Below are positions 166 to 62,199 of a stretch of 64,000 nt of DNA, piece after piece (the first letter of the stretch is position 1; every line of letters starts with the position of its first letter). Source of the stretch: Amoebophrya sp. A120 (taxonomy: Eukaryota; Protista; Dinoflagellata); contig CAJINV010000005.1 in the NCBI GenBank assembly GCA_905178155.1, forward strand, positions 8,409,591 through 8,473,590. Direction: 5' to 3'. Made by a program: the position numbers and the translations under genes. The notes below the pieces were generated by a model. It searched no databases. It worked only from the letters and a program-made list of their open reading frames with translations, and was not told the DNA's origin.

Positions 166-166
166 A

Positions 167-3100: not shown

Positions 3101-5774
3101 CTCTGCCTCAAGATTGGCCGGGCGGCGGTTCCCAGCCTTTCGGCCCGCGCTGCCTGGCAGGCGGTGATCTTCGAAGCACAACAGGAGCCAAAACTGGCTA
3201 CAACCAAACCCGTTCGGCCTGGCACGGCCTCAAGATTGGCCGGGCGGCGGTTCCCAGCCTTTCGGCCCGCGCTGGCGGTGATCTGCGAAGCACAACAGGA
3301 GCCAAAACGGGACAAAACCGAACCCGTTCGGCCTGGCCCGGCCTCAAGATGGGCCGGGCGGCGGTTCCTAGCCCTTCGGCCCGCGCTGGCGGTGATCTGC
3401 GAAGCACAACAGGCGCCAAAAGAACGCGACAAAACCGAACCCGTTCGGCCTGGCTCTGCCTCAAGATGGGCCGGGCGGCGGTTCCTAGCCCTTCGGCTCG
3501 CGCTGGCGGTGATCTGCGAAGCACAACCCGAACCCGTTCGGCCTGGCTCTGCCTCAAGATTGGCCGGGCGGCGGTTCCCAGCCCTTCGGCCCGCGCTGGC
3601 GGTGATCTGCGAAGCACAACAGGAGCCAAAACCGACCAAAACCGAACCCGTTCGGCCTGGCTCTGCCTCCCAAGATTGGCCGGGCGGCGGTTCCCAGCCC
3701 TTCGGCCCGCGCTTGCGGTGATCTGCGAAGCGCAGCAGGAGCCAAAAGGCGACAAAACCGAACCCGTTCGGCCTCGGTCTGCCTCAAGATTGGCCGGGCG
3801 GCGGTTCCCAGCCTTTCGGCCCGCGCTGGCGGTGATCTGCGAAGCACAACAGGAGCCAAAACGCGACAAAACCGAACCCGTTCGGCCTGGCTCTGCCTCA
3901 AGATTGGCCGGGCGGCGGTTCCCAGCCTTTCGGCCCGCGCTGGCGGTGATCTGCGAAGCACAACAGGAGCCAAAACGCGACAAAACCGAACCCGTTCGGC
4001 CTGGCTCTGCCTCAAGATTGGCCGGGCGGCGGTTCCCAGCCTTTCGGCCCGCGCTGGCGGTGATCTGCGAAGCACAACAGGAGCCAAAACGCGACAAAAC
4101 CGAACCCGTTCGGCCTGGCTCTGCCTCAAGATTGGCCGGGCGGCGGTTCCCAGCCTTTCGGCCCGCGCTGGCGGTGATCTGCGAAGCACAACAGGAGCCA
4201 AAACGCGACAAAACCGAACCCGTTCGGCCTGGCTCTGCCTCAAGATTGGCCGGGCGGCGGTTCCCAGCCTTTCGGCCCGCGCTGGCGGTGATCTGCGAAG
4301 CACAACAGGAGCCAAAACGCGACAAAACCGAACCCGTTCGGCCTGGCTCTGCCTCAAGATTGGCCGGGCGGCGGTTCCCAGCCTTTCGGCCCGCGCTGGC
4401 GGTGATCTGCGAAGCACAACAGGAGCCAAAACGCGACAAAACCGAACCCGTTCGGCCTGGCTCTGCCTCAAGATTGGCCGGGCGGCGGTTCCCAGCCTTT
4501 CGGCCCGCGCTGGCGGTGATCTGCGAAGCACAACAGGAGCCAAAACGCGACAAAACCGAACCCGTTCGGCCTGGCTCTGCCTCAAGATTGGCCGGGCGGC
4601 GGTTCCCAGCCTTTCGGCCCGCGCTGGCGGTGATCTGCGAAGCACAACAGGAGCCAAAACGCGACAAAACCGAACCCGTTCGGCCTGGCTCTGCCTCAAG
4701 ATTGGCCGGGCGGCGGTTCCCAGCCTTTCGGCCCGCGCTGGCGGTGATCTGCGAAGCACAACAGGAGCCAAAACGCGACAAAACCGAACCCGTTCGGCCT
4801 GGCTCTGCCTCAAGATTGGCCGGGCGGCGGTTCCCAGCCTTTCGGCCCGCGCTGGCGGTGATCTGCGAAGCACAACAGGAGCCAAAACGCGACAAAACCG
4901 AACCCGTTCGGCCTGGCTCTGCCTCAAGGTTGGCCGCCCGGGCGGCGGTTCCTAGCCCTTCGGCCCGCGCTGGCGGTGCTTTGCGAAGCACAACAGGGGC
5001 CGGCTCCTAGCCCTTCGGCCCGCGCTTGCGGTGCTTTGCATGCGAAGCACAACAGGGGCCAAAACGCGACAAAACCTCGACAACGGATTTCCCGACCTTG
5101 GCTGTTTTTTTGCGCTGGCCTTGACTTTTCAAATTTGGGGCACCTTGACTAACCCGGTAGTACATCGAATAACCCGGTAGCGGTAGTACACCTACGCTCC
5201 ATATACTACACTCGGTTGGTGAACTTGGCATGCACAGGCTTCAGGAGTGCAGGCGTTTGTATTGCGTTTCATGCTATACACATGAGGGGGAGGGGGAGTT
5301 GTGCACTCTCATAACGTCGGAACACTGTTCCTCAGCGCCTTCATTGGCATCTGGCTCCTCTACGCGCTGGTGACGGGCCGGGTGGGCAAAAAGGGCGGCG
5401 GGCTGGTGATGATGAAGATTCTGTTTCCCTGCTTTACTTATGCGTTGCAAATATCTCTGGGTCTGGATCTGGAACATGGCAACTTGTGATGCTGCATTTG
5501 CATTCCAAAAAAATCTGTATTGCATGAGCAGCAAAAGGAGTCCAACTTTTGTTACGCGGAGAGGGCATTTGTCATGCGGGATAGGCATCAAGAAGGTCCC
5601 AACGAATCTGTGATGCTAGGGCATGCATCGCAGACAACATGGCTCATGCAAAACGTGCATGACAAGTGTTGCAACCTCCCAGACCCAGACATATTTACAT
5701 TTCATATTACTTCGAGCCGGGCGACGTCGACGACGAGTGGGGAACCCGGGATGGTGAAGTTGACCACGTACTGA
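167..5774 (+). CDS. 3' part of a multi-exon gene, probable membrane protein (exons ~166-298, 468-551, 5319-5438, 5712-5774)
   Basis: A GT-AG intron at 299-467 and removal of the introner 552-5313 give the in-frame join ...MFVYV|GTLFLSAFIGIWLLYALVTG..., which is hydrophobic. The frame of the last exon is ambiguous. Confidence 0.6.
671..5209. mobile_element. Non-autonomous long-TIR (foldback-like) element nested in the introner
   Basis: ~126-bp imperfect inverted repeats at 671-796 and 5084-5209. No clear TSD and no transposase ORF seen. Confidence 0.8.
2737..5075. repeat. 114-bp GC-rich tandem satellite, ~20 copies
   Basis: gaagcacaac recurs at 3841, 3955 and onward (period 114). Core copies at ~3780-4930 look identical and the edge copies are diverged. 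Confidence 0.97.
5439..5706. mobile_element. Introner family A
   Basis: TIRs tatgcgttgcaaatatctctgggtctgga / cccagacatatttacatttcata; TSD ttact. Confidence 0.9.
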
Positions 5775-6639: not shown

Positions 6640-9161
6640 ATGAAACTCCTCAGCAGCAGTACCACGACCTGCTCCATCCCCACCCCTACTTTTTCCATCC
6701 CAACCCGCCGCGGCCTTCCGCCAAATCTAACCCCAAAGGCGCTGGAGGAGGTGTTGTTCGATTCGGAAGGGTATTTGGTAAACATCCCAGTCGGAGACGT
6801 GCTCGGGTCGAATTATGTCAACAGCGCAGGAACAAGCAAAACGAATGTCAAAAGTTTAATTCCGGAGGGGAAAAGTGCGAAGGAACATTTTGGATACGAT
6901 AGTTGTACAACCAGCACAACTACAACTTCCTCTTCTAAAGCCATCCTCTACCTGTCGGGAAGCCGAGATGTACTGGAAGCGGGGAACAGCCATGTGGTTT
7001 TCACGGGGGTTAGAGACGTCGATACTACAACAGCAGTTAGTGGTGCTACTCCCGCAGGTCCGGTAGTTACAACCGCAAGCAGCACCAGCAACGGCGGCGA
7101 GAGCAGTACGACTTCGCCGAGTTGCGTACAACAACTTCAGCAACAGAAAAAGACGAATTTCCAGGGTAAGGTCGTTACCAAAAACCGGGAAAGGTCGAGG
7201 TCTAAATCCAAGGGCATGATTACAGGAGAAGATGGTGATCTGCAACTTCCGCCCGGGGAATTCCATGCGAGTCGGTTTGTAAAGGAGCCGAAAGTAGTGG
7301 AGCAATTTTCATCTGCGAAATCGAAAGAGATGGAACAAGCTGGAAGTTGTACTCCAAACGCCGAAGCAGGTTCATCTGTAGAAGCTGCACGAGAACCGAT
7401 GAAAGCTACAACCACAACATCAAAATCCAATGCAGCAGCAGTTTCTACTACTGCGCGGAACATCTTCACAAGCAATACGAACACGAAGCCAATCATTCTG
7501 CAGAACACCATCCACGGGACGCAGAAGATCAGCGAAGAGGGTTTTGTCGAGCTCGCCAAGAAGTTCGACTTCGCCACTCAAGTCGCGGAAGAAACCGATG
7601 TGTTTCTCGGGCGGAACCGGGCCCAGAAATCCGTGGAGCGGAGCCGGGACGGGACGAGTGGGTGGGTGAACAACTTGTGTCAGGACACGACCTCTGGAGG
7701 TGGTTCAAAACCCAAGTTTATCGCCCCGGTCATCCAGGGGGGGAGTTTCGAGGGGCTGCGGGTGATCGCGACGAAGAATGTGCTCACGAAATGGGAACAA
7801 CAGGAAGACAATTGTGAAATGAAACCTGCTCTTCTGAAACAAGCAGAAGGAGCGGAGTATGATCAAAAAGAAGCAAGCGAACCCCCACTGCTTCTAGAGA
7901 CGACCACGAGCAAGAAAGAACACGAACCTGCTGAAGCTCCGGTGAAAAATAAAACATCACTTCCACCCAACATCTGCTGCATCAGCGGTCTGGGTCTTGG
8001 GGAATCATTTGAAGATCGGAAGGACATTGTGGAAACGGTGTTGAGAACGATGGAAAACAGTGACAAAAACGGGAGAAAAGCCGCCATTTTCCTCCCGACC
8101 AAGGGGGACTTGCAGGATGTTTTCGAGTTTGCTGAAAAGGTGGATGTGTTCGAAATCTATCCTGAATAAAAACGTACCCACACCAGAGTTGTAATGCTGA
8201 TTTGCAAAGACAGGAAGATTGGTAATGCGCATCCCCATGAGAGCCATTTCCAGTCGTGTTTTCGAATTTGTGATGCTGCGAACAGGATGAGCAGAGGGAT
8301 TTGTAATGCGACTTCCCTTGCTAAACTGCACTACAATACAGCCTGCAATTTGTCATGCGTGACTCACAAAACTCCTAGGTTTGTGTTGCAAAATCCCCAT
8401 CCTGACTCTGGTGTGGGTACGTTTTTACTCAGGATAAAATCGGCTTTCCATTTATTTGCGCGAATAACGGAATTGCGTTGACTTTTTCGCTGAACATGCC
8501 GGAGGATAAACCTGTGAAAGAATTGATTGCGGAAATTGTTGCTGCTGGGAAAACGCGCCGCTCTTGGGGTGTCGACTTGATGCGACCGGAGTGCGCGGAC
8601 GAGTTTATTCCAGTGGAAGAGGTGGACGAGCAGGCAAATACAGCAGCGGAAATAAGTTCTGGCAAGAAGGGTCTGCAAGAGCAGAAGTGCACCCGGGCGT
8701 ATCTCTCCCATTTGCTGCACTTGCAGGAACTGGCAGCCTACATCTGGCTCACGCGGCACAACCTGCGAAAATACGAATTGCTGTTCCGGGAAATCCGGAA
8801 GCACCTGGCGAAGGGCACGTTTGAGGAGTACAGGAACTGGTTCTATGTCACGCATGGGATGGGGATCTTTGGTTATTGTAAACCGGCGTCTTCTTCTCCT
8901 GCAACTGCTGACGCTACTGGTGCTGCAGCCGGTGCAGGACAAGTGTCAACATCGACGGCCGAAAATCAAGCTGTACCTTCCAACAAGCGACCGGCGGAAG
9001 CAGAGGAATTACTACAACCTGCTGTGGGGGAGATCATGAAAAGAACTGCTACAGGAGAAGTTGTGACACAGCAGCTGGGCACCGAGGCGAAGCAGGAAGA
9101 AAAGCAAAAGCCGGGTGAAGAAGCCAGCGAACCAGCAACAAAGATTGCGAAGGTGGACTGA
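6640..9161 (+). CDS. Hypothetical protein, S/T-rich N-terminus (exons 6640-8157, 8442-9161)
   Basis: Introner removal fuses ORFs 6640..8169 and 8478..9161 in frame: VFEI|GFPFICANNGIALTFSLNMP. Confidence 0.8.
8158..8436. mobile_element. Introner family C
   Basis: TIRs tatcctgaataaaaacgtacccacaccagag / ctctggtgtgggtacgtttttactcaggata; TSD aaatc. Confidence 0.93.
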
Positions 9162-9808: not shown

Positions 9809-12800
9809 ATGCCCTTCCTTCTGCACCACTATGACACTGTTAGTACACCTGTTCTTCACGACTTGCTTGCTTCCGTGAGGGACTTTCTTCATGGCCCTAT
9901 CAACTACTCAAGGAGCACAACAACCACCCGCTTTGATAATATCGACTTTCTTTGTACCAGCATCAGCAAGAACACCACCGCGCCTAGCTACACGACGAAA
10001 ACACTCAACGTTCGCACTACTTCCTTCAACGAAACTACGGAGGCGAAGCAGGCCGCAGAACAGGCGGCCGAGCAGGCTGTCGAGGATACCGTCGAGGAGC
10101 AAGAAAACCCCAAGGTGCCCTATGACCCGCTCATGTGTTCCAATCTCACACGTCAGATATAGAATATGAAAATCTGATGTGATGCAAGAAGTGCATTATC
10201 TAGTGTAGCCAACTCTCTTCATAGGATTCAGATTCTGCACGACAAGTTCCGGAGTCCCAAACCGCATTTTTACAACCTGGCGGAATTTGTATTGCAGAAA
10301 GTGGAACGCCCTGCGAGTCTCTCATGCTCATTATGCAAGACAAGTATCAGACTCTACTGTACCGCTTGAGATTGTAACACCTGAGCGGGTTATATGCCCA
10401 TTGCGCAGAAGAACGCGGCACAAGTTAGGAAGGCGTTCGACGATTTGCAGAACAATCGGCCGGTGAACTGATAGAACGACAAAAAATTTGTGAAGTTGCA
10501 TTTGCTTCCTCAAGAACAGACAAGCGCAAGGGCACGCCTCACTTTGTCTCGTCCGGAAGTAGGAGCAAAAATGGGCGGGTTGTGGCAGCGTCAAGATCAT
10601 TTGATGCAGGACATCGAGAAGTACAACAACGATGTCGTGGTTGCTCCCAGCAACCTGCCCGAAATTATTTTTTCCCAGAGCTCGTCGCGCCTGCTAAACC
10701 TGAAGCCCGATCTCGTATTGAAGCGAGGGTATTTATCTGCATTCCTGGACGCGACTGTGGATCAGTCGGGTTTTTCCGTACCGGCGAAGTCCCACGTGCC
10801 AAACTCTTCCAGCGGTCCACCTCGCGGAATCGAAAACAAGAAAAGTATTGGTGTGATGAAAAATAGTTTTGGTGCAGCCAACCCAACCACAAGACGTACA
10901 ACTTCTACTCCGACGGCGGGGACGAGTGCAGCTGCTACGACGCCAGCTGCATCGTGGAAGAACGGCCCTTCTCTGTCCACCAAATCGAAATCCTCCTCCT
11001 CCTTCGCGAATGAGACTGGGCAAGGAGAAAACGAACCAGAAGATGAAATCGCGAAGCACATACCGGTATGGATTGCAAAAATGTCTGGGTCTAGAAGATT
11101 GCAACTTGTGATGCTAAATCCGAATCATGAAAAATCTGTGTTGCATGAGTGCCAAAAGCTATCCCCTTTCGACCAAGTTGGGAAGGAGTTTCTCATGCAG
11201 GAGAGGCATGACAGAGACCTCACAGAGTCTGTTATGCTAGCCCCCGCATTCCAAAACTTAAGGGTCATGGAAAACCTGCATGACAAGCTTACAATCTTCC
11301 AGACCCAGACATTTTTGCAATGCATAACCGGTCTTGCAGGAAGTGAGCAAGCACCTGGCGAAGGTGATGCAAGCGGTTGAGAATTACAATGAAGTGCGGA
11401 AGAGTCATTTGAAGAGCTACCAGGAGCTAATGCAGAACGTGGAAAGTGGAAAGCACAAAATATGCCACGGAGAAGATCATGAAGTTGTGTTGATGAGACC
11501 AGGTTGATCTTGATGGCAGCAAAAATGAACATGCTTGCATGATTTTTGAGATTGAGTACTTCGGTTCTCTTCCAAAGACACTACACCATCTGGTTGTAAA
11601 TTCCTCCAGATGAAGGATCATTGTCTACTTCGCTGCGCATGATCCAGATCGTTTGCATGACCTTGACCAGCTGGTTTATTAATACAACGTTGCTTCATGA
11701 CTTTTTGTTTTTTCCAGCATTCAAGCCGAAGTTGAAGTGGCAAGAGAAGGTGGTTGAAAATGATAATGTGGACAAGTCCGGGGAAAGTGACAGTGAAGAG
11801 AAGGGTGTTGAGAAGATAAAAGCGGACGTCGAGCAGCAAAAGGACGGGAAACAGGAGGGAAACACGGACACGGACCAGCAAGCAGAAAAAAAAACCGCAG
11901 AGGAGGACACCAACAAGGACGACAACAAGTCGGGTGCAGAAGGAGCTAGCGAGAAACCCACCGAAGAAGAGAAAGCAGCTGCAGCTACGGAGGACGCGCC
12001 CGCGGCCGGTGACGAGAAGTTTGCAAATGGCGAACCGGAGAAGGATGAGGCGGGGGGCAAAGTTGCGACAGATACGACTGCCCCGGGGAGCGAAAGTGGA
12101 GCAGCCGCTGAAGCGGACGGGAAAAATGAAACCGAGCAGGAGGTACTCTTCAGCGTGCTCGAAATCAGCAGAAACAGGGTTCTCCAGAATAAACCCGGTG
12201 GCTTTACTTCCTCGTCTGGCCCTGCTGTCTCGACATCTTCCGCTTCTACCACTTTGCCAGGTCGGTCTTCCTCCTCCTTCGCACAGGCTGCACTGAGTCG
12301 TCGCGAAAGGCAGCACGCTCTTCCGGACATAACGGCTCCAAGAGCAAGAAAGCCTTTTGCAATACCGAAGCAGGACGCAGCAGCAATGTTTCTCCAGGCG
12401 GCCAGCACGAAGAACACGATCCCGGCGACAATTTCTTCGTCGAAAACTACCGTTGTTCCCCAACTGCTCGGTCGGGCGCTTATCGACGCGGGACTCGAAC
12501 AAAACCGCGAGAAGACGTCGTACATGTTCGGGGGTTTGTCATGGCACGACATAAAGAATAGCATACGACATCACTTAAACATTCACTTTCACAATGCCGA
12601 CGAGAACAAGGAAAGCGATGAGGCCCACGTGCAGGATGTCTGGGAAAAAGATCCCGATGGCGGCTACGAAGACTATCGTACGGAAAAAGTGCTGAGAGCC
12701 AAGAATACGCAGCATATTTCATCGCACTACAGCACTTACAGATTTGGTCTGCATGACAAGACAGCTTTGCGAAACAGGGAGCCTAGTAGGCAGTGTCATG

Positions 12801-12826
12801 CTTGTTTTCACTACTTAAGTAGATGA
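9809..12826 (+). CDS. Multi-exon hypothetical protein with acidic low-complexity segments; 3' end unresolved, may extend to ~13.7 kb
   Basis: Joins across introners 10121-10394 (KVP|IAQK) and 11067-11326 (HIP|VLQEVSKH), and GT-AG intron 11503-11717 (RP|AFKPK). One junction near 10460-10560 is unresolved. Confidence 0.55.
10121..10394. mobile_element. Introner family F
   Basis: TIRs tatgacccgctcatgtgttccaatctc / gagattgtaacacctgagcgggttata; TSD tgccc. Confidence 0.9.
11067..11326. mobile_element. Introner family A
   Basis: Family A TIRs; TSD accgg. Confidence 0.93.
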
Positions 12827-14521
12827 TCTCTTGCAATAAGTAGAAATACTTCAGCACTTTTTTCTCTGTATACACATCCGAACGAGGACAATATCGTGAC
12901 CAACGTCGACATTGACGAGAATTTGGTTGATGCAGCGATTATGGGAAGAGGACTTTTGGTTGCCTGCGTAGAGGTCATTTTGTAAATGCAATTCGGTCAT
13001 GATCACGCTTGTACTCATGCAGATAGAGTAGGCTGAGGCATAGATTCTTGATGCAAGTCCAAAGACTAGGACGGAGTCAACCATGTTCACTCACATCAAC
13101 GTCGTAGTACTGAGTTCTTGGATCACCCCTGTAGTAAGTCAGTAGCCAAGCACGACGCATGACAGTGACAACAAGCCTTCTTCCCCTCCACAAAAAAGGC
13201 ACGGAAAGCGTTTCAACAGATGGAAGCGGCGGTGAAGACACTGAAGGGAGATATTTATCGTTTGCAAACTTAGTACCTGAGGAACCAAACCAAGTGTCGC
13301 GAACTTGTCATGCAGGTTCTCGCAGTCACAATATGCCTTTGTCATGCAAAACTCGCTCTGCTGTCCAGCATGATCATGACTCGCACACGTAGTCAGTACT
13401 AGTTTCCACAGTTTTTAAAGACGCGGTCTGGGTTACTCAGGCTTCTGCAAGGACGATACTTGTTCGAAGATCAGCGAGACCATTCAGAAAGAGTGAGGAG
13501 ATGAAAAGAGCATCATCCACCAGGCACAGGAGACCGATAACAAACATACAAAGATCAATTTCGACAGGTTTGTGTGCAACAAGTCATCTTCTGAACGATG
13601 TGACCACGACTGCTGACGAGACCGTGCTGTGCCCCGTCCGGATCCGATTTGTCTGCGGGAACTGCTACAAATTCGAAGGAATCATCTGCCTCTGTGTTCA
13701 TCTTCCTGGGCACCACCGTTCGGTGGAGACGTCTGCTTTGCATATAGAGGTGTCCTCGCAGCAGTAACAAGCCTCGCCAAAATGATCGGTGACAGATGAA
13801 GTCGGTACTGAAATAAAAGAATGTGATGTTTAGCTGATTTCTACTGTGCCGATGATTTTCTGTTCCCCGAATCGGACCCGCAATTGTTTCTGTACCGTTC
13901 GACGGTTTGGCGAGTATGAGTCTATAATTGTTCCAGCAAGTAAGATTGATGACAAAAATTCCAGTGAGTTAGGAGATAGCTCTGCAGCTCACCATTCTTG
14001 ATATTTTAGCCTACGAAGAATGCAAACCATAACCAGAACAAGAGTCAGTTGTGAATACAGTCCCGCCGGAATTTCGTCTCATCGTCCTCGTCGCTGCACA
14101 TATTAGCTGCTTCTATCCTCAAAACTACAGAAACTAACCGACCCAGATATTACTACCCTCAGAAAGGACAACCTCATTTGACGACCACAACCCACATTAC
14201 GCAAGGTTACCCCGGAGCACACTCCTATCGGAAATAAGCAGTTCATACGTATTCAATTTTGTGATAGCCTTCATTCTTGATCTTGCTTTATTTTACTGCA
14301 CAGGCCTGCGCTTTGTCGAGACAGTGTTTTTGTCTTTATGTACTTGAGCACCAGGTAGTACTAGTAGTCACTCCACGAATAGCCTACTGAGTATAGGTTT
14401 TTTACAGCACCTTTTTTTTGCAAGTGTAGTACAGTTTCCTGTGTAAAGAGTACTTAAATAGTTAGAAGGAAACGCATGTCCCTGTGCTGAGCTTTACCGT
14501 ATACTTTTCAAGCTGAACAAC

Positions 14522-16550
14522 ATGGCAGGCGGTTCTCGGAAAAAGAAGAATCCGCGCGGCGGCGCGGGAGGAGCCGTAGGGGGAGACAGCGAGGACTCAG
14601 AAACGGGCTATGCTAGTGACCAGGACCAGCAAAGCATCAAAGGGGCACACAACAGCAAGCACCAGGCCGCCCACACCTCCACAGCAAATTCTACTTCCCC
14701 CGGAACTGCAAGCACGAAGCAGCTGGACCGCGGGGCATTTAAGCTCGAGAAAATGTGCATCCACTGCAACCGGCCGTTTTCTTGGCGCAAAAAGTGGGAT
14801 ATGCAGTGCAAATATGTCTGGGTCTGGAAGGACGCGAACTTGTGATGCGTATTTCACAACGCCCACAAATCTCTTATGCATAGGCAGCAAAAGATAAAGA
14901 TGGCCATTTCCTCTTCCTGTCACCAGAATGGGGGATCTGTCATGCGGATTAGGCATCGCAGGAGCTTCTCGAAATCTGTGATGCTAGGTCTGCCATGATA
15001 GACCTTCTGTGCCATGCAAAAACAGCATGACAAACCTTGCATCCTTCCAGACCCAGACATATTTGGGTTTAATATGGGAACGGTGTTGGGACGAAGTGCA
15101 GACCTGCTCCAATGCGTGTAAACGAGAGCGGAAAAGAAAACACTTCGGAACTAATTTGAATGCAGACAATGACCCACTAACACCACAACTTCTGCCAGAG
15201 GAGCAAGACGGCGGCCAGATAGGGGAAGGCGAAGAAATAGGAAACTCAGCAACGACAAACACTTCTGCTCTACCACAAGCTTCTGCCAGCAGCGGCGCCT
15301 CCGCTAGTACCGCCACCTCCGAGATGTTGAAAAAGTCTAGTGCGAACTATAGTACCAAAAACGCAGGGGCAGGAGCAGGAACACCCACAACAGCGCACGA
15401 GAGGCGCACGAAGGAGTGCGACGTGTGCAAAACCCCCGTGCAGCTGGCGTATAGGTTATCAAATGCAATAAATATGTCTGGGTCTGGTTGGAAGGATGCA
15501 ACGTTTGTCATGCACATTTTGCATTACTCCTGATGTCTGTGATGCATGCCCTAGCATCACAGATGTTGGGAAGGCTCCCTGATGCCTATACCGCATGAGA
15601 AATGCCCTTACGCCGTGGCAAAAACTAGACCTCTTTTGCTGTTCATGCAATACAGATTTTTGGAGAATGCAGACGCAGCATCACAAGTTGCATCCTTCCA
15701 GACCCACACATTTTTGCAGTTGATATAGGTGTAAGTGGGACAAATCAAAACAGTGGCGGTTCGTGTGCCGGCCCTGCTGGCCAGTAGTCAGTCAACAGGA
15801 ATATTTGGAACAAAATAGTAAGGCGACAAAAAATCACGGACAGAACAAGCAGCTTCCAGGGCTGCTAGGGAACCCCTTCTACTATCAAATGCAAAAATGT
15901 CTGGGTCTGGAAGAATGCAAGTTTGTCATGCTTGTCTGGCATGAGTCGAGAATCTGTGTTGCATAGCCACGAAAAGGCCCTCTTACCTGTCATGCAAAAA
16001 CGCAGAAGTTTGCAATGCGGAATACGTAAGACATGGCAACCAAAAAATTTGTCATGCGTAGCTGCGTATTGCAGTGCGTTTATAATTCACCTTTCGCATT
16101 ACATTTAAGTACAAGTTTCCAGACCCAGACATATTTGCACTCCATATCTACGTCTACGGCGGTACCTGGAAAGCGACCATTGGGTTGACGAAAAATGAAA
16201 TTTTGAACGAACAGCAAACGACAACCGCGAAAACTCGTCTAGAAGTTGCCATAGGGTCAGGACTTCCTCAACTAGGAGATGAAGTAGGTCTTGTGCAACA
16301 TGGATCTACTTCTGGTCAACTACATAACCCGGCGAAAGCAGGGGACCGGATGGTCGAGCTCGACGATAAGGCGAGCCACGAAGTAATGCCTTTCAACTAC
16401 TACACTTCTGGTGAACAAGCTGCACAGGAGAGTTGGGCGGAGGCGCAGCTACCTCAAGAAGTTCTTCATGGTCCCGGTGTTGCGTTTCAAGCTCCCGTTG
16501 TAGTTGAAAAAATCCTTCGGGACGATGATAAAGATGAATTTACTGCGTGA
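14522..16550 (+). CDS. DUF2256-domain protein fused to a second Cys-rich (CxxC...CxxCW...YGGTWK) domain (exons 14522-14799, 15080-15456, 15731-15882, 16152-16550)
   Basis: The spliced product reads KMCIHCNRPFSWRKKW|ERCWDEVQTCSNACK, the DUF2256 signature. It continues KECDVCK...AYR|CKWD...FVCRPCW...NPFY|VYGGTWKA. Confidence 0.85.
14800..15074. mobile_element. Introner family A
   Basis: Family A TIRs; TSD tggga. Confidence 0.93.
15457..15725. mobile_element. Introner family A (reverse orientation relative to 5439)
   Basis: Family A TIRs; TSD taggt. Confidence 0.93.
15883..16146. mobile_element. Introner family A
   Basis: Family A TIRs; TSD tctac. Confidence 0.93.
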
Positions 16551-16848
16551 TGGTCTTGTTTCTCCTCGTTGTCAACGTAGTACACCCACAGCTTGCAATT
16601 ACTGAAGTAAAAAATCAAAATGCCGTATTTCTTCTGAAGTTCGAAGGACAAATTTCCTGACATCAGTTCGATTCATTTATTGTTGTTCTCGCTGCAGTAT
16701 CGCTTGTATTGTCTTGCTGTTGCGCATCAGAGAAGTTGAAGTTCCTATAAAAACTGAAAGTGCCTGTGCTTGATTTCCGTGCGCATTATTTCAGACAAGA
16801 AACTTCTCGTGTACTACGTCTTCTAGTGTCAAGGTGGAAAAATGTTTT

Positions 16849-44088: not shown

Positions 44089-45781
<1,693 letters not shown>

Positions 45782-51834: not shown

Positions 51835-54800
51835 ATGCAGCCCCACCGCTATAGCATCCATGACAACAACCTGCAATCCCAGCCGGGCACCCGCACCAGC
51901 TCCCCACCACCTCGGGTCGCTGCACCGCCGTCCCCGTCTACGGTTTTGAATCAAGTGACAAATGGCACCTACTTCCACGCGCCGCACCTATCGGGACTTA
52001 GCGGGGGATACCAAATGCAAAAATGTCTGGGTCTGGAAGGATGCGAGATTTGTAATGGTTGTGTGGCATGACAAGAAAGTTTGTGATGCGTGTCCAAGAA
52101 GAGACCCTTTTGCCTGATATGCAAAAACGCAGTTTCTCATGCGAAAAACGCAACACAAAGAAGCGCAGACATTTCTCATGCTTGGCTGTGCATTACAGAG
52201 CATTCACTATTCCCAACACAGCATTACAAGTTTCCAGACCCAGACACTTTTGCACTTGATAGGGGGAAGTCGCAGCCAACCAGCCCGGCGGGTTCGTTCT
52301 CCAGTTTGTCGCCGAAACGGCGAGGAGCTGTTGCTGGGAACAGCCTCCAAAATGCAGCAGCAGCCCCTGCCTCCAGTGGCGGAACTACTGTTGCACCGAA
52401 GCACCAGCAACCAATCGAGCATGTGATGGCGAATATACGGAAGTTATCGGAAGAGGACTGCAAGAAGTTTTTCCATAATCCGGGCGTTAGTAACGTTTCC
52501 CGTGTGACGATGAAGGGAGAAAATCTTGCACCCCACCTACCAGCAGATCCGTTGGAGAAAACACCTCCCTTCGCCAACAAGCCGCACGCAAGCATCCGCT
52601 TCAACCAGGAGCCGTTTTGTTTACCGGAGGAACTGAACAGCGTGAAAAAGTTAATTGAAGAAGAGAATAATTACTACCACGAACCGACAGTAGAAGAGAG
52701 GTTGGAGGAAGAACTGTTGAAACAACAAGTGCCTGAAAATCAGCAATTTGCGGAATCCGCGAACATCCGGGAAACGATTTCCCCCTCCATCTCCCCGAAA
52801 AACGGTAGACGGAAACAAAAATTGTACAGTCGCGACTTGACGCTCGACGCTAATGCCGCCGCGAAAGCGGCGCCGATCGGGCTTTTGGACGAGAACAGTG
52901 ATGAGAAAAACCACCCTTTTCTGATGAATTACGAAAAAGTGTCGGCTTTTAAGAACTGGAATTTGAAATTCCACAAAACCGGGATCGACACGGTGGTTGC
53001 AGGTGGCGCAGGAGCGAGTCCTTTGGACAATAAATCACCTGCTTCGTCCCGGGCCGGTCTTATGCAGAGGCCAGCCACTTCCGGCAGTTCTTCTTCTTTC
53101 CCGGGTGGACCAGCGTCGTCCCACCCGTCTAGCCCCGCGAAATCCCCCCTGGACCTTGATTTGTTCCAGGAACAGGCAAAGCGGGCGGACAAGTTTTTGC
53201 AGAACATGAAGAGGAAACAGTTCATGGACAGTGGTGCTGCGGCTCTACCGACTGACCAACAGATGATCTCAGCGACAGCAAAGGAGTGGGTTCCTAGGGA
53301 TGAGGAGACCGGAATTGCGACCAACCCGGCGTTTATTTCCGCCGATGAGGTTCTGTTCGTTTCGCCGATCACCCGGCAATACAAAACGAACAAAGGCGCG
53401 TCGACGAACAAAGGTGATTCAAATTCCCCAATCATGGACCGGCTGCACTTCTTGCAGAAATCGCCACCGAACAAGCACAAGATCGGGTACAAATATTTCG
53501 CGTCAGGCGGGTTTCCGAAGTCGAAAGAGCAGTTGGAATCGGATTTGTTATCCAAAGCGGAGGAGGAGGGGCTAAGCCCAAAAGCGGTGAAAAACCGGGA
53601 ATTCACGGACCAGCAGTTGGAGCGAAACGCATTCCAAGCCCGGATGAAAGATGAATTGAATCCGGCGTTGGATAGCGAAAAATTCAAGCGGGACACGGAG
53701 ATGAGTCGGCAAGCAGCCAGAGCTTACGTGAATTTACGGATTCAGCGGTATTTGAAAGGCCCGAATGCCGCGGTGAGTAGCAATTTGAAAAATAACGTAG
53801 TTCCAGGAAGGGCTTCCAGTCCAGAGGAGGCAGCTGCAAGAGAGAAGTCGTTGCTCGTGAATGCGGATGAGATTGACAAGTGGTTTCCGGAGCAGCTGGC
53901 ACGTTGTGTGAAAGAAAACCGACCGTTGTTCCAACCGATCCACTCCGCGCCTGTTCCACCCAAGGCGATCAAGAGCCCATCGAGCAGTACTGCGAAAACG
54001 AAGAACCCCGCGGCCTTGTTGACAATTGGGGCAGGAAAGAAGAAAGCAGGTGCTAATGCGACGAGTCCCGGAGGTGCAAGTGTAAGTGCCGGTGGAGCTG
54101 CTCAGGCGGGTTCTGCTGCTGCGAATCCCGACGGAACAGGTGCAGACAAGGAAGCTGCCGCTCCGACGATGCAGGCGGAGCCGCTAGTTTCTGACGGGTG
54201 GTCTTTGGATTCCGAAGACCCACTATTAGAAGAGAAAACGGCACAACACGTGCAACGAGTTTTGCTGAAATTCGTCGAATTGGTAGAAATATCCCGTGCA
54301 AAAGTATCGTCTACTGATTGCATTTGTGCATTACAAATCTCTTTCCCATGGTAAATCAGCATTGCAAACTTGATTTGTAATGCTGGGCTAATTTGTATTA
54401 TGCAGTTCATACTAGAACTAGTACGAATACGATGCTTTTGCAGTGCATAAGAAAATGACGAAGAAGAATACGAGCGGCGGGAGGAAGAAAGGAAAAGAAT
54501 CGAGAAGGAAAAGCAAGCGGCTTTAAACCCCTTCGGCGACATCGGCAGGCCAAGCACGGTCTCCTCCACCTCAACTACCTCTGCTTCTGGGTTCGGCTCG
54601 CGCCCGGGCAGTCGGGGGGCGGTGGGTTCTGGGAAGAATGATAAGAAGAAAAAGCAACTCCTCCCGTGGCAGAAAAAGGAGAAAGACGAGCCGGAGGAGA
54701 GGCCGGGAGACGAGAAAACTGTCACCCGTGCGGTGTTCTGTCGGTTCTTACTGTCAACCCGGATCGTCTTGGATGTCGATGACTGGCCGAACTTCCCTTC

Positions 54801-57800
54801 AAAACGGTCGGTCAAAGTCCTACCGAAGGGGTACGTTTTGGATGTGGACCGAGAGCTGGAAAAACGCGCATTGGTGGTCGAAGCATCAAAACTCCAGTCC
54901 CCCGCGGGAAATCGGAAATCTCCGCGGTCGCAATCCCCGCAACAACTGGAGAAGAAGCGGATAGAGCAGCAAATGTTGAACTCGATCATGTACTTGCAAA
55001 GCACCGAGCTAGTCCCCGGCTTTCTGCAGAAAGACCCAATCCACTCAAGTAGCGGCGGAGGTCCTGGGCAGAACAATAACCCAAATCAACAGCAACTCTA
55101 CCGAGTGAACTTACCGCCGGCGGATAAGATCCACCACGACAAACTTGGGCAAGACCGGTTTTTTGAAACTTCTATTCCGGAGCTGATCTGCCAAAAGGGG
55201 TTGAAGTATTTGGACTTGGTCCTGCGGTTCGACTATGCAATGCAAAAGTTATCGTACTAGTATGAACCAGCCATGCTCCGGCTGCCGCCGGAGCGCAAGG
55301 CTGTTGGGCCGGGGCAAGACTGTTTGCCGATAGGACCACAACCCCGCGGGCCTATGCACAACGAAACACATTGCGCCGCGCCAACCCGCAGGACCACTTG
55401 CGCGCTTCCCGCGCCTGTGGGCGCTCTGCGCAGGGAGCAGCTGCAAAGACCACCGGGGGCGAACAGAAGCCGCCCGGCGGGAGAGGGTAGCGCGAGAGGG
55501 TGGCGCGAGAGGGTGGCGCGGAAAGGCGCCGAACAAAACAGCTCCGCGAATGGCCTGCAGTGCCAAATATGGGTAGCGCCATGCGGATTCGCGCCCGCTT
55601 CTTTGTGTTTTACCCTCTCGCAGACCTCTCGCAGACCCTCTTTTTGACCTCTTTTGGGGGTCCCCGCTAATAATCCGGCTATACTCGCGGGTAGAGGTCG
55701 ACAGAGGTGGCCGAGAGGTGGCCAAGAGGGTCCGCGAGAGGTCGCCCCTTATTCGCGCCACCTCTCGCCACCTCTGTCGAACTCTCGCGCCCCCTCTTTT
55801 TGACCTCTCTGCACCCTCTGAGGCACTTAGGCGCCGCCTTAAGGTGGGTCCTTCGGCGGGCTATACTCGCGCACCCTCTCGCCGACCCTCTCGAAAGGGG
55901 TCCCGCGCCACCTCTCCACCTCTGTCGACCTCTTTTTTACCTCTTTTGACCTCTTTTTGACCTCTCGGCCACCTCTTGTTTACCCTCTGTCTACCTCTTT
56001 TTTCGCATGAATATAATATACAGTAATTGCATGACAAATTTTTCCTAGAAGAGAAATGAAACTTGTCATGCAGTTTCAGGTAAGAAAGCAGATCTGTAAT
56101 GCTAGACTCGCATTAATACGAGTACGATACTTTTGCAATGCATATCGACGAAAAGTGCAAAGAGCTTGCGACCACCGCGAAGCTACCAAACGCATCAAAC
56201 GCGGATACCATGACGGTGAGGCAGTGTACCGATTGGTTTGAGCGGATTCTGCTTGCCTGGGTCGTGACGAACAGGCTGAGGAATGAGGAAATCGCTTTTA
56301 AAGCGGAACTGATCGAGCAAGCACAAGCGGAGAAAGCTGGTTCGCCCGGGTCGCAGAATCCGAACGGTCCGGGTTTGAATAGACCTTCCAATACCCCGGC
56401 TGGACAGAACCCGAACGAGGCGGATGTGAAGCGGATTGTGAAGTACAAAACGGAATTGAGGCAGTTTTTGGACATCATGCTCCCCGCCGCGGAGTTGGTC
56501 GCAGAACAGAGGCGGGAGCGGTTAGTCTGCTTGCAGAAGAAGATCCTCCATTGTTTCAAGCAGGAGCGACCGCGTATCATGCCGAAAGGGGTGTTGAAAG
56601 AGGAATTAGAGCCGGAGATGGATACTTTGTCCCATTTGAACGCACAAACAAGCTTTTTCGCCCTACCGAAGTCAATGAAGGGGACGATGTCAAATGGGGA
56701 GTTCCAGCGGCATCTGCGGAATATGCATTGCACGTATGTCTGGGTCTGGACAGCTTGAACCTGTATTGCGCGTTTCGCATGCCATTAAAATCTGTATTGC
56801 ATAAGCAGCAAAAGCGCCACACTGTCGTCATGCAAAGTCGCAACTTGTAATGCGTGCTGCGTATGAGCAAGCGAGAGCGAGGAGTGAAAAATTTGTCATG
56901 CTTCACTGCAATTAATATTAAAGTAGGCGCGCTCAATCATGACCATCCAGCATTACAAGTTTCCAGACCCAGACATGTTTGCAATGCATACGGAAGTTGT
57001 GCGAGGAGAGGAAATTTTCCGACAAGGACACCCAGGCGATTCTGGCGAAAACGGTTATGGATTGCAAAAATGTCTGGGTCTGGAAGATTGCAAGGTTTGT
57101 CATGCACATTTTGCATGACCCGCGATGTCTGCGATGTATGCCCCAGCATCACAAATTTTTTGCGGGTATCTTGATGCCTATCCCTCATGACAAATGCCCT
57201 CTCCGCGGAGCAAAAACTGGACGCCTCTTGCTGCTCATGCAATACAGATTTTTTTAGATTCCAAAAATAGCATCACGAGTTGCATTCTCGCAGACCCAGA
57301 CATTTTTGCAATCCATAACAGTTGCGGTGTTACAATCAGAAAGGTTCAGCAACGAGTTATTGGAGCCGGAGGCGTTGGTTTTGTCGAAGTTCCTGCACGA
57401 GAAGTACTTTTTACCTTTGTTCGTATCAAATGCAAATATGTCTGGGTCCTCTGGAAGGTCGCAACTTGGGATGCTATCTTTGGACTCTGAAAAGATCTGT
57501 ATTGCATGACCAGCAAGATGAGGAGTAGGCTGTGTGCTACGTGGAGAGGGCAATTGTCATGCAGTGCAGGCATCAGGAAGCCCTCAAAAAGTCTGTGATG
57601 CTAGGGCGTACGTCACAGACATCATGGGTCATGCAAAACGTGCATGACAAACAGGCGCACTCTTCCAGACCCACACGCATTTGCAATGCATAGTTCGCCT
57701 ACTTTTACGATTTCGGAAAGGAACTAAACCCGAATTACGTCGATCCGATGCTACAACTGCTACCGGGGGAGAATTCGGAAATGTTTCCGGAAGCAGGAGG

Positions 57801-60800
57801 ACCGGGTGGGGTTGCTGCACTTGGCAGTCTCGATTCTCCAATGCCAAGCACGATGTTCGCGAGCAGATCGACGGTTTTCTCCTCCAGTTCAGCGGTTTCT
57901 AATAACAAACAGAAGTTGTTGAAGCAGAAGCAAGCGAACTCGAACCCTTTCATCGAGCGCGACCCAGACGACGAGATTATCCCACCAAGCCCCCGCGGTG
58001 GAGGAACGAAAGTTGGGGGGAAGAAGACGAAGTCGAAAGAAGCGGGTACTAGTGGTGCTGCGGCGGTTGAACAACAGCAGCAGCAATCCCCTGCGAATCA
58101 CAACCAGTCGATTGATTCGTTGCACTCCACCAGTCAAAAATCGTCCTCCTCTTCTAACGGGACCACCAACACCGCCCAGCTCGCGAAACTCGTTGCCACC
58201 GGGCCGCAGCCGCAGTATTCCAGATATCACAGTGCACAACTCCCCCGCCCCCTCATTTGTATGGTATGAACAGCAACACAAGCAACAGCACAAAAGGGGC
58301 TTTCGCATGACAAATCAGCATGCAAATTGTAGTACTATTTGAGGTTCCAAAATTTATCATGCTGACAGTGCTTACGAGTAAGGTGTGAGTTTCGTACTAT
58401 GCATTACAAATGAGGGGGAGGGGGAGCTGTGCAGTTTCATACCAGAACGACCGAGCACATGAGCGAGAAGGCGTTTTTGCATTTACTGGACGAATATCAA
58501 ATGCAAAAATGTCTGGGTCTGGAAGATTTTGCGAGTTGTCATGCTTGTCTGGCATGACCAAAAAGTTTGTGATGCGTGTCCAAGAAGAGACCCTTTCGCC
58601 TGTCATGCAAAAACGCAATTTGTCATGCGAAAAGCGCAACACAAAGAAGCGCAGATATTTCTCATGCTCGCCTGTGCATTACAAACCGTTCACTTTTCCC
58701 AACGCAGCATTACAAGTTTCCAGACCCAGACATTTTTGCATTTCATAATGAATTGAATCTGATCCCGACGATCTGTGGGAAGGAAGATGCCCGGTTGTTG
58801 TACCACTGTGCGGAAGCGCAGCTGGTCTCGGAGAAGGATTTTTTCAGGTCCTGCGCGATCGAGGATTTCCGGGACCACTTAGACCGGCCGTGTAACGCAA
58901 GTCTTTACATGACGTGCTACGATCCGAAGTTGTTGCGGTACAAGAAACCCATGAATAGTTCCAGCTCTTCTGGGGGCGGTGGTAATGCCGCGGGAAACAA
59001 AGGTGCACGTGGAGGTGGAGCGAACAGTAGTAGCGCAATTTCTCTGCTGAACCAGTCTGCGTTTGAGACCAACATCGGGCAAATTCCCACGTCCATGTCA
59101 ACGGTGGAGAGTGTGAATTTAGCTCTTATCAAATGCAAAAATGTCTGGGTCTGGAACTTTGCTCGACTTGTCATGCAGGTTTTCAATGACCCATATCATA
59201 TGATCTGTAATGGAGACCTAGCATGACAGGTTCCGTGAGATCACTATCAGGCCTATCCTGCATGAGAAACTGCCTCTCAACTTGATCAAAAGTGGGCAGC
59301 ATTTGGTAATCATGCAACACAGATTTTTGCGTGATTCAGATTTAGCATGACAAGTTGGCTCCAACCATCCAGACCCAGACACTTTTGCAGTGCATAGCTC
59401 TGGGCTTGCAGCAACTGCAGGAAGAACACGAGGAGTTGGCTGCTGGGGAACAAGCTGCTGCAGCGGCCGGTTCGCCGGGTGTACAAGGAACTGCTGCTGC
59501 TGCACAACTCGCTTCCCCCTTCACCAATCTTGCCGCCGCGATCAGCGGCACTTTACCTCCCCAACCCCCCGGCCCGGGGAACGCAGAGAAAATCGAACTG
59601 CTGCAGAACAGTTTCAACAACCCGGGGCTGAAAGAACCGTCCACACAAGTAGCGATTTCCCAGCAGGACCTGGAACTGTTCCAGAACTACTTCAAGCTAT
59701 TATGCGTGGAAAACCAACCGATCAGGAAACTGATCCGTCGCGGGTACCCCTTACCGCGGTACTATTTCAACGCCGAGGCCTTGACGGAAACTTTTTTGAA
59801 AATGGTTTTAACCCGGTTTGCGAAGTTCGAGAGTAGCAACGGGTTCCCCCGGAAGAGTGCTTTGTTAGCTGCTGCTGCGGCGGAAGAGAGTAGCAAAGCT
59901 GGTGGTGCTGGAGGGTCGCAGAGCGAGACGCCTGGGGGAGTGAATAAACAAGCCGGTACAACTTCATCTACGTCTACTTCATCTTCTGAAAAACCATCGA
60001 CTTTTCTGAAGATCACGTGGGCTTTTGGAATCGTGAAGAAGGCGATGGTATCAAATGCAAAAATGTCTGGGTCTGGAAGAATGCCAACTTGTGATGCGCA
60101 TTTCAGAACACAGAAAAATCTCTCATGCATGGGTAGCAAGCGCTGCCCGCTTTCTGCACCCAAAGTGGGGGATTTGTCATGCGGATTCGGCATTGCAGAA
60201 GCTTCTCGAAACCTGTAACGCTAGAGCTTCGATGCCAGACCTTCTGTGTCATGCAAAAACAGCATGACTCTTCCAGACCCAGACGTTTTTACATTTGATA
60301 GATGGCGAAAATTTTCGAGAACCAGCAGCGAATGAAAGAGGAGAAGCGGTTGCATATCCTAAAGGAAAAACGTCCCTGTCATGCAAATGTACAATGACAG
60401 GACCACGTGTAATGCGCATCCCCAGGAGAGGCATTTCCAATCGTTTTTTGGCAATTGTAATGCTGTAAACAGCATGAAAAAATCGTTTTCTCATGCGGCT
60501 TCCCTTGCTAACCAGCACAACACTGCAGATGAAAGCTTGTAATGCACAACTCCCAAAACTTCCAGATTTGTGTTGCAGATTTACCAACTTGACTATAGGG
60601 TGGGGACGTTTTTTCTCAGCATATCGCAGCACTTGAGGACTTCGAAAGCGTTGTTCGATAAAGCGACGACGATCGAGCTGGAGAAGGAATTCTCCCTGTT
60701 GAACAAGATTGAAGACCAGAAGCGGCACGATGAGGAGACGAGATTGTTGAAGAAAATTTCCTATGCAATGCAAAAGCATCGTACTAGTATAAATTGCATT

Positions 60801-62199
60801 ACAAATCAGCCCAGCATTGCAAAATTAATTTGTAATGCGGATTTACCTTGAGAAAGAGATTTGTAAATGCATATAATGCAATTACTACGAGTGCGATACT
60901 TTTGCACAGGATAGTTCCGTTGCGAACGTTTTGTCTGCGCAGGCCATTGCGGACCAGCGGGAGCTGCCGTCGGATTTGGAATATCGGTTGCAAAAGTATA
61001 TGTACTTCTAGTAGCGATTTTTGCATTACCAGCATGATGAAAGATGGAATTTGTGATGCTCATGAACCTAAGAGACGAACTCTGTCGTGCAAGATTGCGA
61101 ATATCAAGATTACTACGAGTGCGATACTTTTGCAATGCATGTGGGGCAGTCTGATTCCGAGGAGCTGATGAAGGCGACTTCGTCCAATGAGTTAATGAAG
61201 CTGCAAAAGGAGTTGAAAGAACGGCAGCGGACGAAGGAGAGGAGGAAAAGGTATACTTACTGTGCTACACCTTGTGGTTTGCGCATGACACAGACTCTCT
61301 GCTGTCAGCAGGGCGCATGACAAACTTCATGGTTATTTTCTGAGTTCTTCCAAACGCACCTTCTCGGTCGTCTCCGTGACAAATTTTTGAAGAAAAATTC
61401 TCACTATCACTATCAGTTGCAACATAATCCTCGAAACGGGCCGGCTAAACGTGGACAAGAACGAAAAGTCCGCTCTGGAATTCGCAATCGACTACGAGCA
61501 CTACTTACGGTCTTTGTTTCATTCAAACCCGAGCAACGAGCAAGGCAGCTTTTACTTCGATAGCGCGGCGGTCTTGCGATCGGCGAAGCGGGAGTACAAC
61601 CAGATGAGTAACCGGGGGATGATGCTTGTGGATAACAGCCAACCAGCTTCGCCGAGTAAACTTGAGCAGTTAGGGTTGGCCGGGTCGAAACCGCAGAAGG
61701 ACTACAAGGCGATGGACATTATCGAGCAAGAAGAAATCACGCATTCGGTCACTGATGCGGCGGTGAAATTTCGAAAAAACTCCAGCCGCACACCTTCGCC
61801 TCTGACACAGAACAAGTTTGGGACGAGAGGAGGGTATGATCATAGATGGTTGCTTGCTTTCGTTTTCGCTAGGTAGTAGATCTTCGCATGACAATGCTAC
61901 ACTAGATCAGCGTCTCGGGGGTCCCGTATGACAAACAGCGCACTAGTACAATGCACGTTTCCAATAAAACACCAACCGCAACCGTTCACAGCCCCCGCCG
62001 CGGCATCATGGGTAGTCGAAGCCGATCCCCGGATCCGGTGTCTGCGTTTGCCGATGCGAGAACCGTAGCGCAGGAAAAAACGAAGTTCGCGATTACCAAT
62101 TTGAACAGCAAGTTTCTGGCGAGCCACCCGTTGTACGGGGGATTGACAAGGGAGGATTGGGGCATTGTACCCGTGAAGGCGGAGGAGTCGCCTTATTGA
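51835..62199 (+). CDS. Large hypothetical protein, ~16 exons
   Basis: Continuous frame after removing 13 introners and the GT-AG introns 61251-61416 and 61834-61910 (e.g. LVE|NDEE, RFD|EKCK, LDE|LNLI). No recognisable domain. Confidence 0.75.
52009..52261. mobile_element. Introner family A
   Basis: Family A TIRs; TSD gggga/ggggg. Confidence 0.9.
54290..54449. mobile_element. Introner family E
   Basis: Family E TIRs; TSD agaaa. Confidence 0.9.
55234..56144. mobile_element. Introner family E, expanded by a ~750-bp GC-rich insertion
   Basis: Family E TIRs; TSD tcgac. The insert at ~55266-56010 has AGAGG/CCTCT repeats. Confidence 0.88.
56722..56990. mobile_element. Introner family A
   Basis: Family A TIRs; TSD cggaa. 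Confidence 0.92.
57056..57317. mobile_element. Introner family A
   Basis: Family A TIRs; TSD acggt/acagt. Confidence 0.92.
57424..57692. mobile_element. Introner family A
   Basis: Family A TIRs; TSD gttcg. Confidence 0.92.
58225..58441. mobile_element. Introner family B
   Basis: TIRs tatcacagtgcacaactccccc / gggggagctgtgcagtttcata; TSD ccaga. Confidence 0.9.
58495..58747. mobile_element. Introner family A
   Basis: Family A TIRs; TSD acgaa/atgaa; close relative of 52009-52261. Confidence 0.92.
59127..59396. mobile_element. Introner family A
   Basis: Family A TIRs; TSD gctct. Confidence 0.92.
60049..60300. mobile_element. Introner family A
   Basis: Family A TIRs; TSD gatgg. Confidence 0.92.
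60355..60623. mobile_element. Introner family C
   Basis: Family C-like TIRs; TSD ttgca/tcgca. Confidence 0.85.
60762..60913. mobile_element. Introner family E
   Basis: Family E TIRs; TSD tttcc/gttcc. Confidence 0.88.
60982..61141. mobile_element. Introner family E
   Basis: Family E TIRs; degenerate TSD tggaa/tgggg; removal restores the frame. Confidence 0.8.

Follow-up and report, generated by a model that had tools for sequence, protein, structure and literature searches.

The closest known counterparts of the elements studied here are the introners of Amoebophrya sp. A120 itself, which in the accessible parts of the source are non-canonical introns near 240 nt that form many families and are removed from RNA, with inverted repeats starting with TAT, seven variable bases and at least three As, and with direct repeats of 3-5 nt (PMC7789003). 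We analysed a 64-kb stretch of A120 DNA (the window), whose elements match these published introners in their TAT start, N7 spacing and A run, as well as in their direct repeats, families and removal. Only terminal repeats are described in that work, and its sections and supplement text (figures excluded) mention neither a word in the interior nor helical phasing nor a preference in the target flanks (PMC7789003). Tens of thousands of introns without signals move and are removed in these parasites, for which no transposase and no U1 small nuclear RNA were found, as far as the accessible text goes (PMC7789003). Here we describe a short word repeated within introners of all families, which, judged from sequence, likely forms a docking array for a DNA-binding protein aiding their spread rather than an RNA splice signal.

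Among other mobile elements, the MITE (miniature transposable element with inverted repeats) Emigrant/Lemi1 carries a short repeated motif within a non-coding element with terminal inverted repeats (TIRs), to which the present word may be likened with respect to mobilisation, and such subterminal motifs of MITEs are bound cooperatively by transposase proteins (accessible parts of PMC1636448). The introners resemble MITEs in being short and non-coding, in having TIRs and target site duplications (TSDs) and in carrying a conserved repeated word at a set distance within the ends. However, here one word is found in 14 families with different TIR cores, extends through the whole interior and keeps a 10.5-bp phase, and the elements act as introns. 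Subterminal repeats are reportedly also present in hAT and CACTA elements. The IS3EU/GingerRoot group shares the TA..TA termini, but its TSD is usually 6 bp (PMC10045372, in the part available) and not 5 bp as here. Euglenid nonconventional introns share non-canonical junctions, paired ends and TSD-like repeats, and their removal machinery is unknown; in contrast, they have CAG/CTG near the ends, a signature absent from the terminal logo of the introners, and the accessible parts of the source report no phased internal word for them (PMC11282704). Neither an internal word nor helical phasing in A120 introners is described in the accessible parts of the literature searched, in which subscription papers were not covered (PMC7789003, PMC12130899, 10.1101/2020.10.14.339549); likewise, the available text of PMC11453091 and PMC9860276 contains no description of an internal word in introners, and that of PMC13693241 nothing on introns. 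Thus, while the introners themselves are known, the phased word common to all families appears to be new.

The introners and their shared word

The window consists of co-oriented genes interrupted by short TAT..ATA elements with inverted ends of 25-30 bp and a 5-bp duplication. For comparison we used at least 127 related loci (674 kb), that is, metagenome contigs matched by the end pattern of family A, which is over-represented among them because of this query; a search of viral contigs with the same pattern gave no match. The related loci carry the families of the window, with best matches of up to 96% identity and a similar density of the strict word defined below (2.97/kb vs 2.89/kb in the window). 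A copy search that relied on TIR and TSD and ignored the word, allowing a TAT or TAC start and requiring at least 4/5 matching TSD positions, catalogued 502 distinct introner copies in the window and the related loci listed, and none in three shuffled windows. These copies form 17 clusters of 2-205 copies plus 29 singletons, indicating repeated families, and were arranged in 14 multi-copy family groups, with A divided into five subfamilies, represented by 18 consensuses in total. A TAT start was found in 497 copies, and the 5-bp TSD was perfect in 410 and carried one mismatch in 92. At TIR positions 11-13 the frequency of A is 0.68, 0.76 and 0.91. The earlier note on this DNA had regarded the TIRs of the families as unrelated, which holds for the TIR cores but not for the TAT..ATA ends, the A-rich positions 11-15 and the 5-bp duplication, all of which are common to every family.

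The strict word, TGTNATGC, has 185 matches on the two strands of the window, compared to 8.64 expected and a maximum of 17 in 100 shuffles, and 163 of these matches fall within 56 hand-listed element stretches. Its density is 13.0/kb in the catalogued elements of the window and 12.2/kb in those of the related loci, against 0.07/kb in long open reading frames (ORFs) and 0.39/kb in the remaining non-element DNA, confirming the rarity in exons and intergenic DNA noted earlier. In predicted plain GT-AG introns, some of which have wrong bounds, the density is 0.75/kb, with the word present in 6 of 39. The extended form is approximately AYYTGTVATGC, in which the free base is rarely T (15 cases of TGTTATGC, compared to 761, 414 and 317 with C, G and A), and the variants TCT.., ..TTGC and TGC.. 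are tolerated. An order-3 Markov model of the interiors predicts 112, 21 and 20 occurrences of the three common forms, which are thus exceeded 7-20 fold, while near-neighbour words tested against this model showed no excess. The word presumably resembles Sox-Oct, C/EBP-ATF, Rbfox and Sm sites, a likeness that we do not use as support.

All 18 consensuses, and hence all 14 family groups, contain the word, and CATGAC and GCATGA are the sole 6-mers common to these groups. It also recurs in each of the eight elements in which it had first been seen (starting at 5439, 8158, 19964, 19721, 36046, 37148, 39717 and 44784; Table 1). The claim that every family carries the word therefore stands for the family groups but not for every copy, as a strict site is missing from 13 of the 502 copies, any tolerated interior site from four, and a strict site also from two long elements considered below. 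In all 36 consensus ends the outermost site starts 33-57 bp from the end, with favoured distances of 33-34 and 41-45 bp.

Helical spacing, orientation and conservation

In 15 of the 18 consensus groups, sites pointing the same way are separated by 31-33 bp (weight 15.0, compared to a null mean of 2.1 and a null maximum of 3.5), and the spacing of facing sites peaks at 15-16 and 47-48 bp. Among all site pairs separated by at most 110 bp, a period of 10.5 bp, the pitch of B-DNA, fitted best, sites of equal direction being offset by full turns and sites of opposite direction by half turns. At this period the coherence was 0.51 (null maximum 0.31), and it remained 0.43 after pairs at 30-34 bp were dropped; neither value was reached by any of 200 null sets. 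Keeping period and centre constant, the phasing was seen in the 11 least-related consensuses (0/500; 3/500 for strict sites without the 32-bp pairs) and in 31 copies outside families (0-4/500; 0 with all pairs and 3 without the 32-bp pairs). Pooled copies gave a peak at 10.4 bp and a flat response at 11 bp, and spacings of 18 and 39 bp break the phase. A single centre near the middle of the word would place all sites on one face of the helix. The earlier note had suggested a shared cis-code acting either as a DNA site of a transposase or host factor or as an RNA signal, and the 10.5-bp phasing speaks for the first of these options.

The host strand could be called for 436 copies (66 were uncalled), and none of the 18 groups showed an orientation bias relative to the host gene, including the families whose consensus sites all point in the same direction (C, 19:21; A4, 10:7). 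Nor was there pairing covariation of the outer sites, the middle bases being complementary in 80 of 213 cases compared to 81.6 expected. Since orientation bias and covariation are both lacking and few plain GT-AG introns contain the word, we read it as a code in double-stranded DNA; a single-stranded RNA signal is unlikely, and the second option of the earlier note finds no support.

In a split-half test, with base classes defined from one half of every family and mismatches counted in the remaining half, word bases mismatched in 570 of 12376 cases (4.6%) compared to 11183 of 47596 (23.5%) for other interior bases, whereas the free middle base varied as freely as the latter (425/1773, 24%); TIR positions 14-30 mismatched in 1232 of 15475. 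Word mismatch was below that of the interior in 16 of 16 alignments tested, and the frequent changes in the word (G>C 109, A>T 83, T>C 100) correspond to the tolerated variants. The word is thus five times better conserved than its neighbours, and the equal conservation that the earlier note had named as speaking against a shared code was not observed. When the word was masked together with its flanks, no alignment (z<4) was obtained for 133 of 143 consensus pairs between families, so that end-to-end similarity reflecting simple common descent was not seen either; the ten pairs with remaining similarity were led by G1-G2 (z 11.4), D-I (8.1) and C-K (8.0). Conservation and masked alignments together support the shared cis-code. 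A deep common origin of the families nevertheless seems likely from their shared termini, despite the failure of end-to-end alignment.

As to when this constraint acts, private changes were similar in the word (1.3-1.7%), the TIR (1.8%) and the interior (1.6%), while shared changes differed eightfold between word and interior (2.7% vs 21%). Nearest-neighbour copies differ by 4.5% at invariant word bases, close to the pairwise rate of about 4% implied arithmetically by 92 one-mismatch and 410 perfect TSDs, the mismatches of which are distributed over all five positions. Damaged copies were analysed after a collinearity filter that kept 487 of 632 copies and with families of fewer than 10 copies excluded. 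In 65 copies with a broken TSD or terminus the mismatch was 10.7% for the word, 7.7% for the conserved interior and 8.3% for the TIR. The word hence decays like other conserved columns once a copy is damaged, which favours a role in mobilisation and fits a constraint acting on copies that later transpose. Retention of the first site falls from 347/410 to 25/50 as TIR identity drops, but indels and the scoring of family C ends against A/E/N TIRs void the expectation for this comparison.

Removal, target sites and the role of the array

RNA-like contigs, whose RNA origin is guessed, came from two samples of one study. In these, four elements with TIRs are skipped (joints in Table 1), each with exactly 5 extra bases, so that removal of the element plus 5 bases restores the empty target site. 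One of them is an E copy with a broken right terminus and intact sites (155 bases removed), and the element at 44510-44724 is spanned by a DNA contig at single-copy depth (43.6), which shows it present in DNA and gives no sign of excision at the DNA level there. At the imperfect TSDs 44505-44509 and 44779-44783, the joints retain the left copy up to and including base 1 in the first case and base 3 in the second, and the latter places the 5' cut within two bases of TAT. The same contigs join across a GT-AG intron (45271-45471) that retains three strict sites, bearing out the persistence of the word in some GT-AG introns. Coding context was found at 80% of 431 junctions compared to 45% of random places. 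Removal with 5 extra bases leaves the frame open in 400 of 435 cases, although out-of-frame cuts do so in 359-365, and the frame test therefore discriminated poorly.

Insertion sites likewise show a preference: in the flanks of empty sites, T stands at -13 in 485 of 998, in most families, and G at -11 in 428, chiefly in A and E. TTG, the 5' half of the word, occurs at -13 in 126 of 996 flanks, compared to about 12 at neighbouring positions. Target flanks match TIR positions 10-16 of their own family at one offset (z 4.5, or 2.5 without A and E, among 36 tests). The target preference is thus palindromic, lies 11-13 bp outside the TSD, is partly family-specific and resembles the TIR as well as the 5' half of the word. 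Being one turn beyond the cut, it would suggest that the insertion machinery reads the DNA there.

Based on these sequence data, we consider it highly probable (about 0.85) that the word array is bound by a sequence-specific protein as a double-stranded DNA site, while we give about even odds to its role being assembly of the complex responsible for mobilising the element. The protein would occupy the word on one face of the double helix, and several protomers sharing this face might wrap or loop the 110-320-bp element and bring its ends together; new copies would be founded only by elements with an intact array. Candidates for the binder are a transposase domain and a host partner common to families with differing TIR cores, whereas removal from RNA would rest on another feature, probably the target duplication together with the paired ends. 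The earlier proposal that the word is the recognition element of the unusual splicing system finds no clear support here. In damaged copies it is lost at the pace of other conserved columns, and a few word-free copies sit in predicted open frames.

Several points weigh against a mobilising array. Two TAT..ATA elements with perfect 5-bp duplications, 677-5203 of the window and 13016-13888 of the related locus L051, have no strict site, and the TAT..ATA end type can thus move without the word; the L051 case alone also argues that the word is not always needed for tolerance in a gene. The sites spread through the entire interior and are not confined to the ends. Private rates are underestimated at variable columns, and masking of the word during alignment of damaged copies inflates its mismatch near indels. 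Outside recognisable elements, a perfect partner stands 31-33 bp away from 19 of 117 strict matches (1-3 in controls), more than expected from neutral decay, which hints at retention after insertion, and redundancy of sites could mask selection by the host. Scanning 26 of the 45 ORFs in the window and 94 of the 149 in the loci gave no transposase or integrase Pfam match, and no cognate autonomous element was found among the long TIR elements or these 120 ORFs, a sample of less than 1 Mb of the genome. Furthermore, no transposase is reported for A120 in the available parts of its description (Farhat et al., PMC7789003).

The leading alternative, which we consider rather unlikely, is that a host protein, bound to the phased array, flags the element at the chromatin level and steers how it is cut from the nascent transcript, whichever way the element faces; the array would then be what the unusual splicing system recognises, at the level of DNA. 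Orientation blindness and phasing would fit this as well as mobilisation. The perfect 31-33-bp pairs outside elements belong to about 12 loci without TIR or family similarity, several within GT-type introns and including the GT-AG intron joined in the RNA-like contigs, and one-mismatch partners show no excess (12 vs 6-17); such intact pairs in old introns without recognisable ends leave room for a DNA-level host role in removal. The removal of the E copy with a broken terminus and the preference for coding context point in the same direction, as does the lack of a detected U1 small nuclear RNA in these genomes, according to the accessible text of PMC7789003. However, besides the decay of the word together with other conserved columns in damaged copies, four short copies without any interior site and the L051 element sit in predicted open frames, elements with 0.75-1.6 kb of word-free cargo persist, one of them seen removed, and copies in coding context retain the word no better than non-coding ones (mismatch 4.8% vs 3.4%, with only 16 of the latter). 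In a bolder form, which we hold to be doubtful, most introns would be defined on DNA, with a protein polymer on the phased array directing exact removal together with one target copy, thereby replacing U1 recognition, and the complex might also mobilise the element.

It is quite unlikely that the array is a positioning or binding code of an abundant host chromatin protein (histone, DVNP or HMG-type) that helps spread or tolerance indirectly. One host factor would suit families with different TIR cores better than many transposases, and TTG is enriched at -13 of the target flanks. With its 10.5-bp period and the A/T run and GC that lie 5' and 3' of the core, respectively, the array is reminiscent of DNA-wrapping signals. 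On the other hand, seven near-invariant bases indicate sequence-specific reading and not general wrapping, and the scarcity of the word elsewhere (0.07-0.39/kb) and the fixed distances of the outermost sites from the termini also argue against such a code. Sharing through common descent or mutational bias (CpG decay to TG/CA) without present function is improbable. Termini and TSD length are common to all families, ten masked pairs remain similar and CG is depleted within elements (0.63-0.70), but the word is conserved around a free middle base, and the number, order and direction of sites vary among families while the phase is kept. CpG decay in particular is rejected because the word exceeds the order-3 model of the interiors 7-20 fold while near-neighbour words do not, and conservation, Markov excess and phase rule out descent or CpG bias as the sole cause. 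Finally, an RNA signal, whether single-stranded, formed by paired opposite copies or read by a small-RNA partner, is very improbable and already largely refuted: the elements fold well as RNA, chiefly through their ends (z -7.8 and -7.4; TIR 14-30 paired in 6405 of 7939 cases vs 6238 expected from column make-up), and most copies hold both orientations, with sense UGUNAUGC slightly commoner than its complement (691 vs 596), but 78 of 436 oriented copies lack a strict sense word and 98 the complement, covariation is absent, the period is 10.4-10.5 rather than the 11 of RNA helices, and an Rfam search of the window found no family.

For the docking array favoured here, a word of strict helical grammar shared by all families would offer a bait for the protein and a genome-wide predictor to compare with intron retention, and would redirect the search towards a DNA-binding factor and away from an RNA guide. 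If it serves mobilisation only, diverse families of introners have arrived at, or retained, a single docking architecture; should the array truly also mark introns for removal, introns would be defined on DNA.

Features of the window and further observations

Table 1. Introners and related features of the window (window coordinates; strand of introners unassigned unless stated; a > b, joint in RNA-like contigs)
Feature	Position	Strand	Word sites	Remarks
A element, right part	1..170		4	cut by window start
K element	552..5313			hosts nested word-free 677-5203
A (A2) introner	5439..5706		4 strict: 5485+, 5570+, 5609+, 5657-	TIR, 5/5 TSD
C introner	8158..8436		4 strict, all +	one-directional family
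B introner	10121..10394		1 strict	
A3 introner	11067..11326		4	
Degenerate TIR element, G-like	12674..12870		2	
A4 introner	14800..15074		4	
A2 introner	15457..15725		4	orientation opposite to 5439
A1 introner	15883..16146		4	
E introner	19721..19875		19757-, 19792+, 19823+	right end approximate; spacing 35 then 31 bp
D introner	19964..20283		4	two 32-bp pairs
E introner	21416..21589		2	
A2 introner	21643..21907		3	
A2 introner	23295..23562		5	
G2 introner	23623..23835		2	
B introner	24077..24339		3	damaged TSD
Degenerate element, A-like	24626..24917		2	
A1 introner	24980..25230		4	
D introner	25311..25627		3	ends approximate
A2 element, left part	25671..25868		2	split by ~7-kb insert
A2 element, right part	32883..32984		2	split by ~7-kb insert
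D introner	26589..26884		0 strict, 4 tolerated	
A2 introner	27161..27426		4	
Degenerate element, G-like	28817..29007		1	
A-like element	29106..29399		0 strict	strongly decayed; right end approximate
Degenerate TIR element	33498..33730		1	
A2 introner	33751..34010		3	
A1 introner	34077..34332		4	
G1 introner	36046..36254		2	
A-like relic	36509..36770		36543+ (tolerated partner 32 bp on), 36693+	approximate; internal GT donor-like site; no RNA cover
Element without recognisable TIR	36850..37060		36911-, 36942- (31 bp apart), 36986+	approximate
H introner	37148..38625		4	~1.2 kb word-free cargo
B introner	38707..38981		2	
E introner	39021..39165		3	
C introner	39192..39470		4, all -	reverse of 8158
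I introner	39717..40023		4	
A2 introner	40106..40383		4	
A2 introner	40551..40812		5	
D element	40884..42776		1 strict	~1.6 kb word-free cargo
A-like introner, decayed	44510..44724		2	44505>44726, +5 bases; DNA contig
J introner	44784..45088		3	44781>45092, +5 bases
GT-AG intron, no TIR	45271..45471	+	3 strict, 54 and 33 bp apart	45270>45472
E introner	45517..45666		3	right terminus broken; 45508>45664
B introner	46688..46949		3	
A2 introner	47347..47608		5	
A1 introner	52009..52261		4	
E introner	54290..54449		2	
E element	55234..56144		3, right end only	~750 bp word-free cargo; skipped with one TSD copy, 55228>56145
A5 introner	56722..56990		3	
A2 introner	57056..57317		2	
A2 introner	57424..57692		3	
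K introner	58225..58441		2	
A1 introner	58495..58747		6	
A3 introner	59127..59396		3	
A4 introner	60049..60300		3 strict, all +	
C introner	60355..60623		4	
E introner	60762..60913		2	
E element, decayed	60981..61141		1 strict	ends approximate
Predicted GT-AG intron	61251..61416	+	61283-, 61315-	perfect 32-bp pair; no joint seen in RNA-like contigs

The long element at 677-5203 has TAT..ATA ends, a 5-bp TSD, a 123-bp TIR and an internal tandem array of ~119 bp, and its inner part is also present in a related metagenome locus (L035). The L051 element begins with TAT-N7-AAA, has a perfect TSD and its own internal repeat, and lies in a predicted ORF next to an in-frame duplication of ~63 bp. The ~7-kb insert at 25869-32882, which contains genes and introners of its own, interrupts a single element of family A; on both sides it is bordered by a 17-bp direct repeat beginning at a word site, and its first 170 bp are family C-like.

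A 181-bp piece with a three-base repeat tail is 96% identical between window positions 38280-38460 and 10365-10545 of another related locus (L010), lying within introners of two families, and looks like the 3' end of a retroelement exploiting introners as safe sites. At 16885-17514 there is a fragment of a non-LTR (long terminal repeat) retroelement endonuclease (PF14529) flanked by a repeat of ~37 bp, and a queuine tRNA-ribosyltransferase-like gene (PF01702) at 6610-9158 is broken by the C introner at 8158. In plain introns, e.g., the predicted GT-AG intron 11503-11718, TCATG/CATGA reaches 6.5/kb compared to 2.6 in long non-coding DNA and 1.7 in ORFs, an excess that represents either eroded words or a separate signal.

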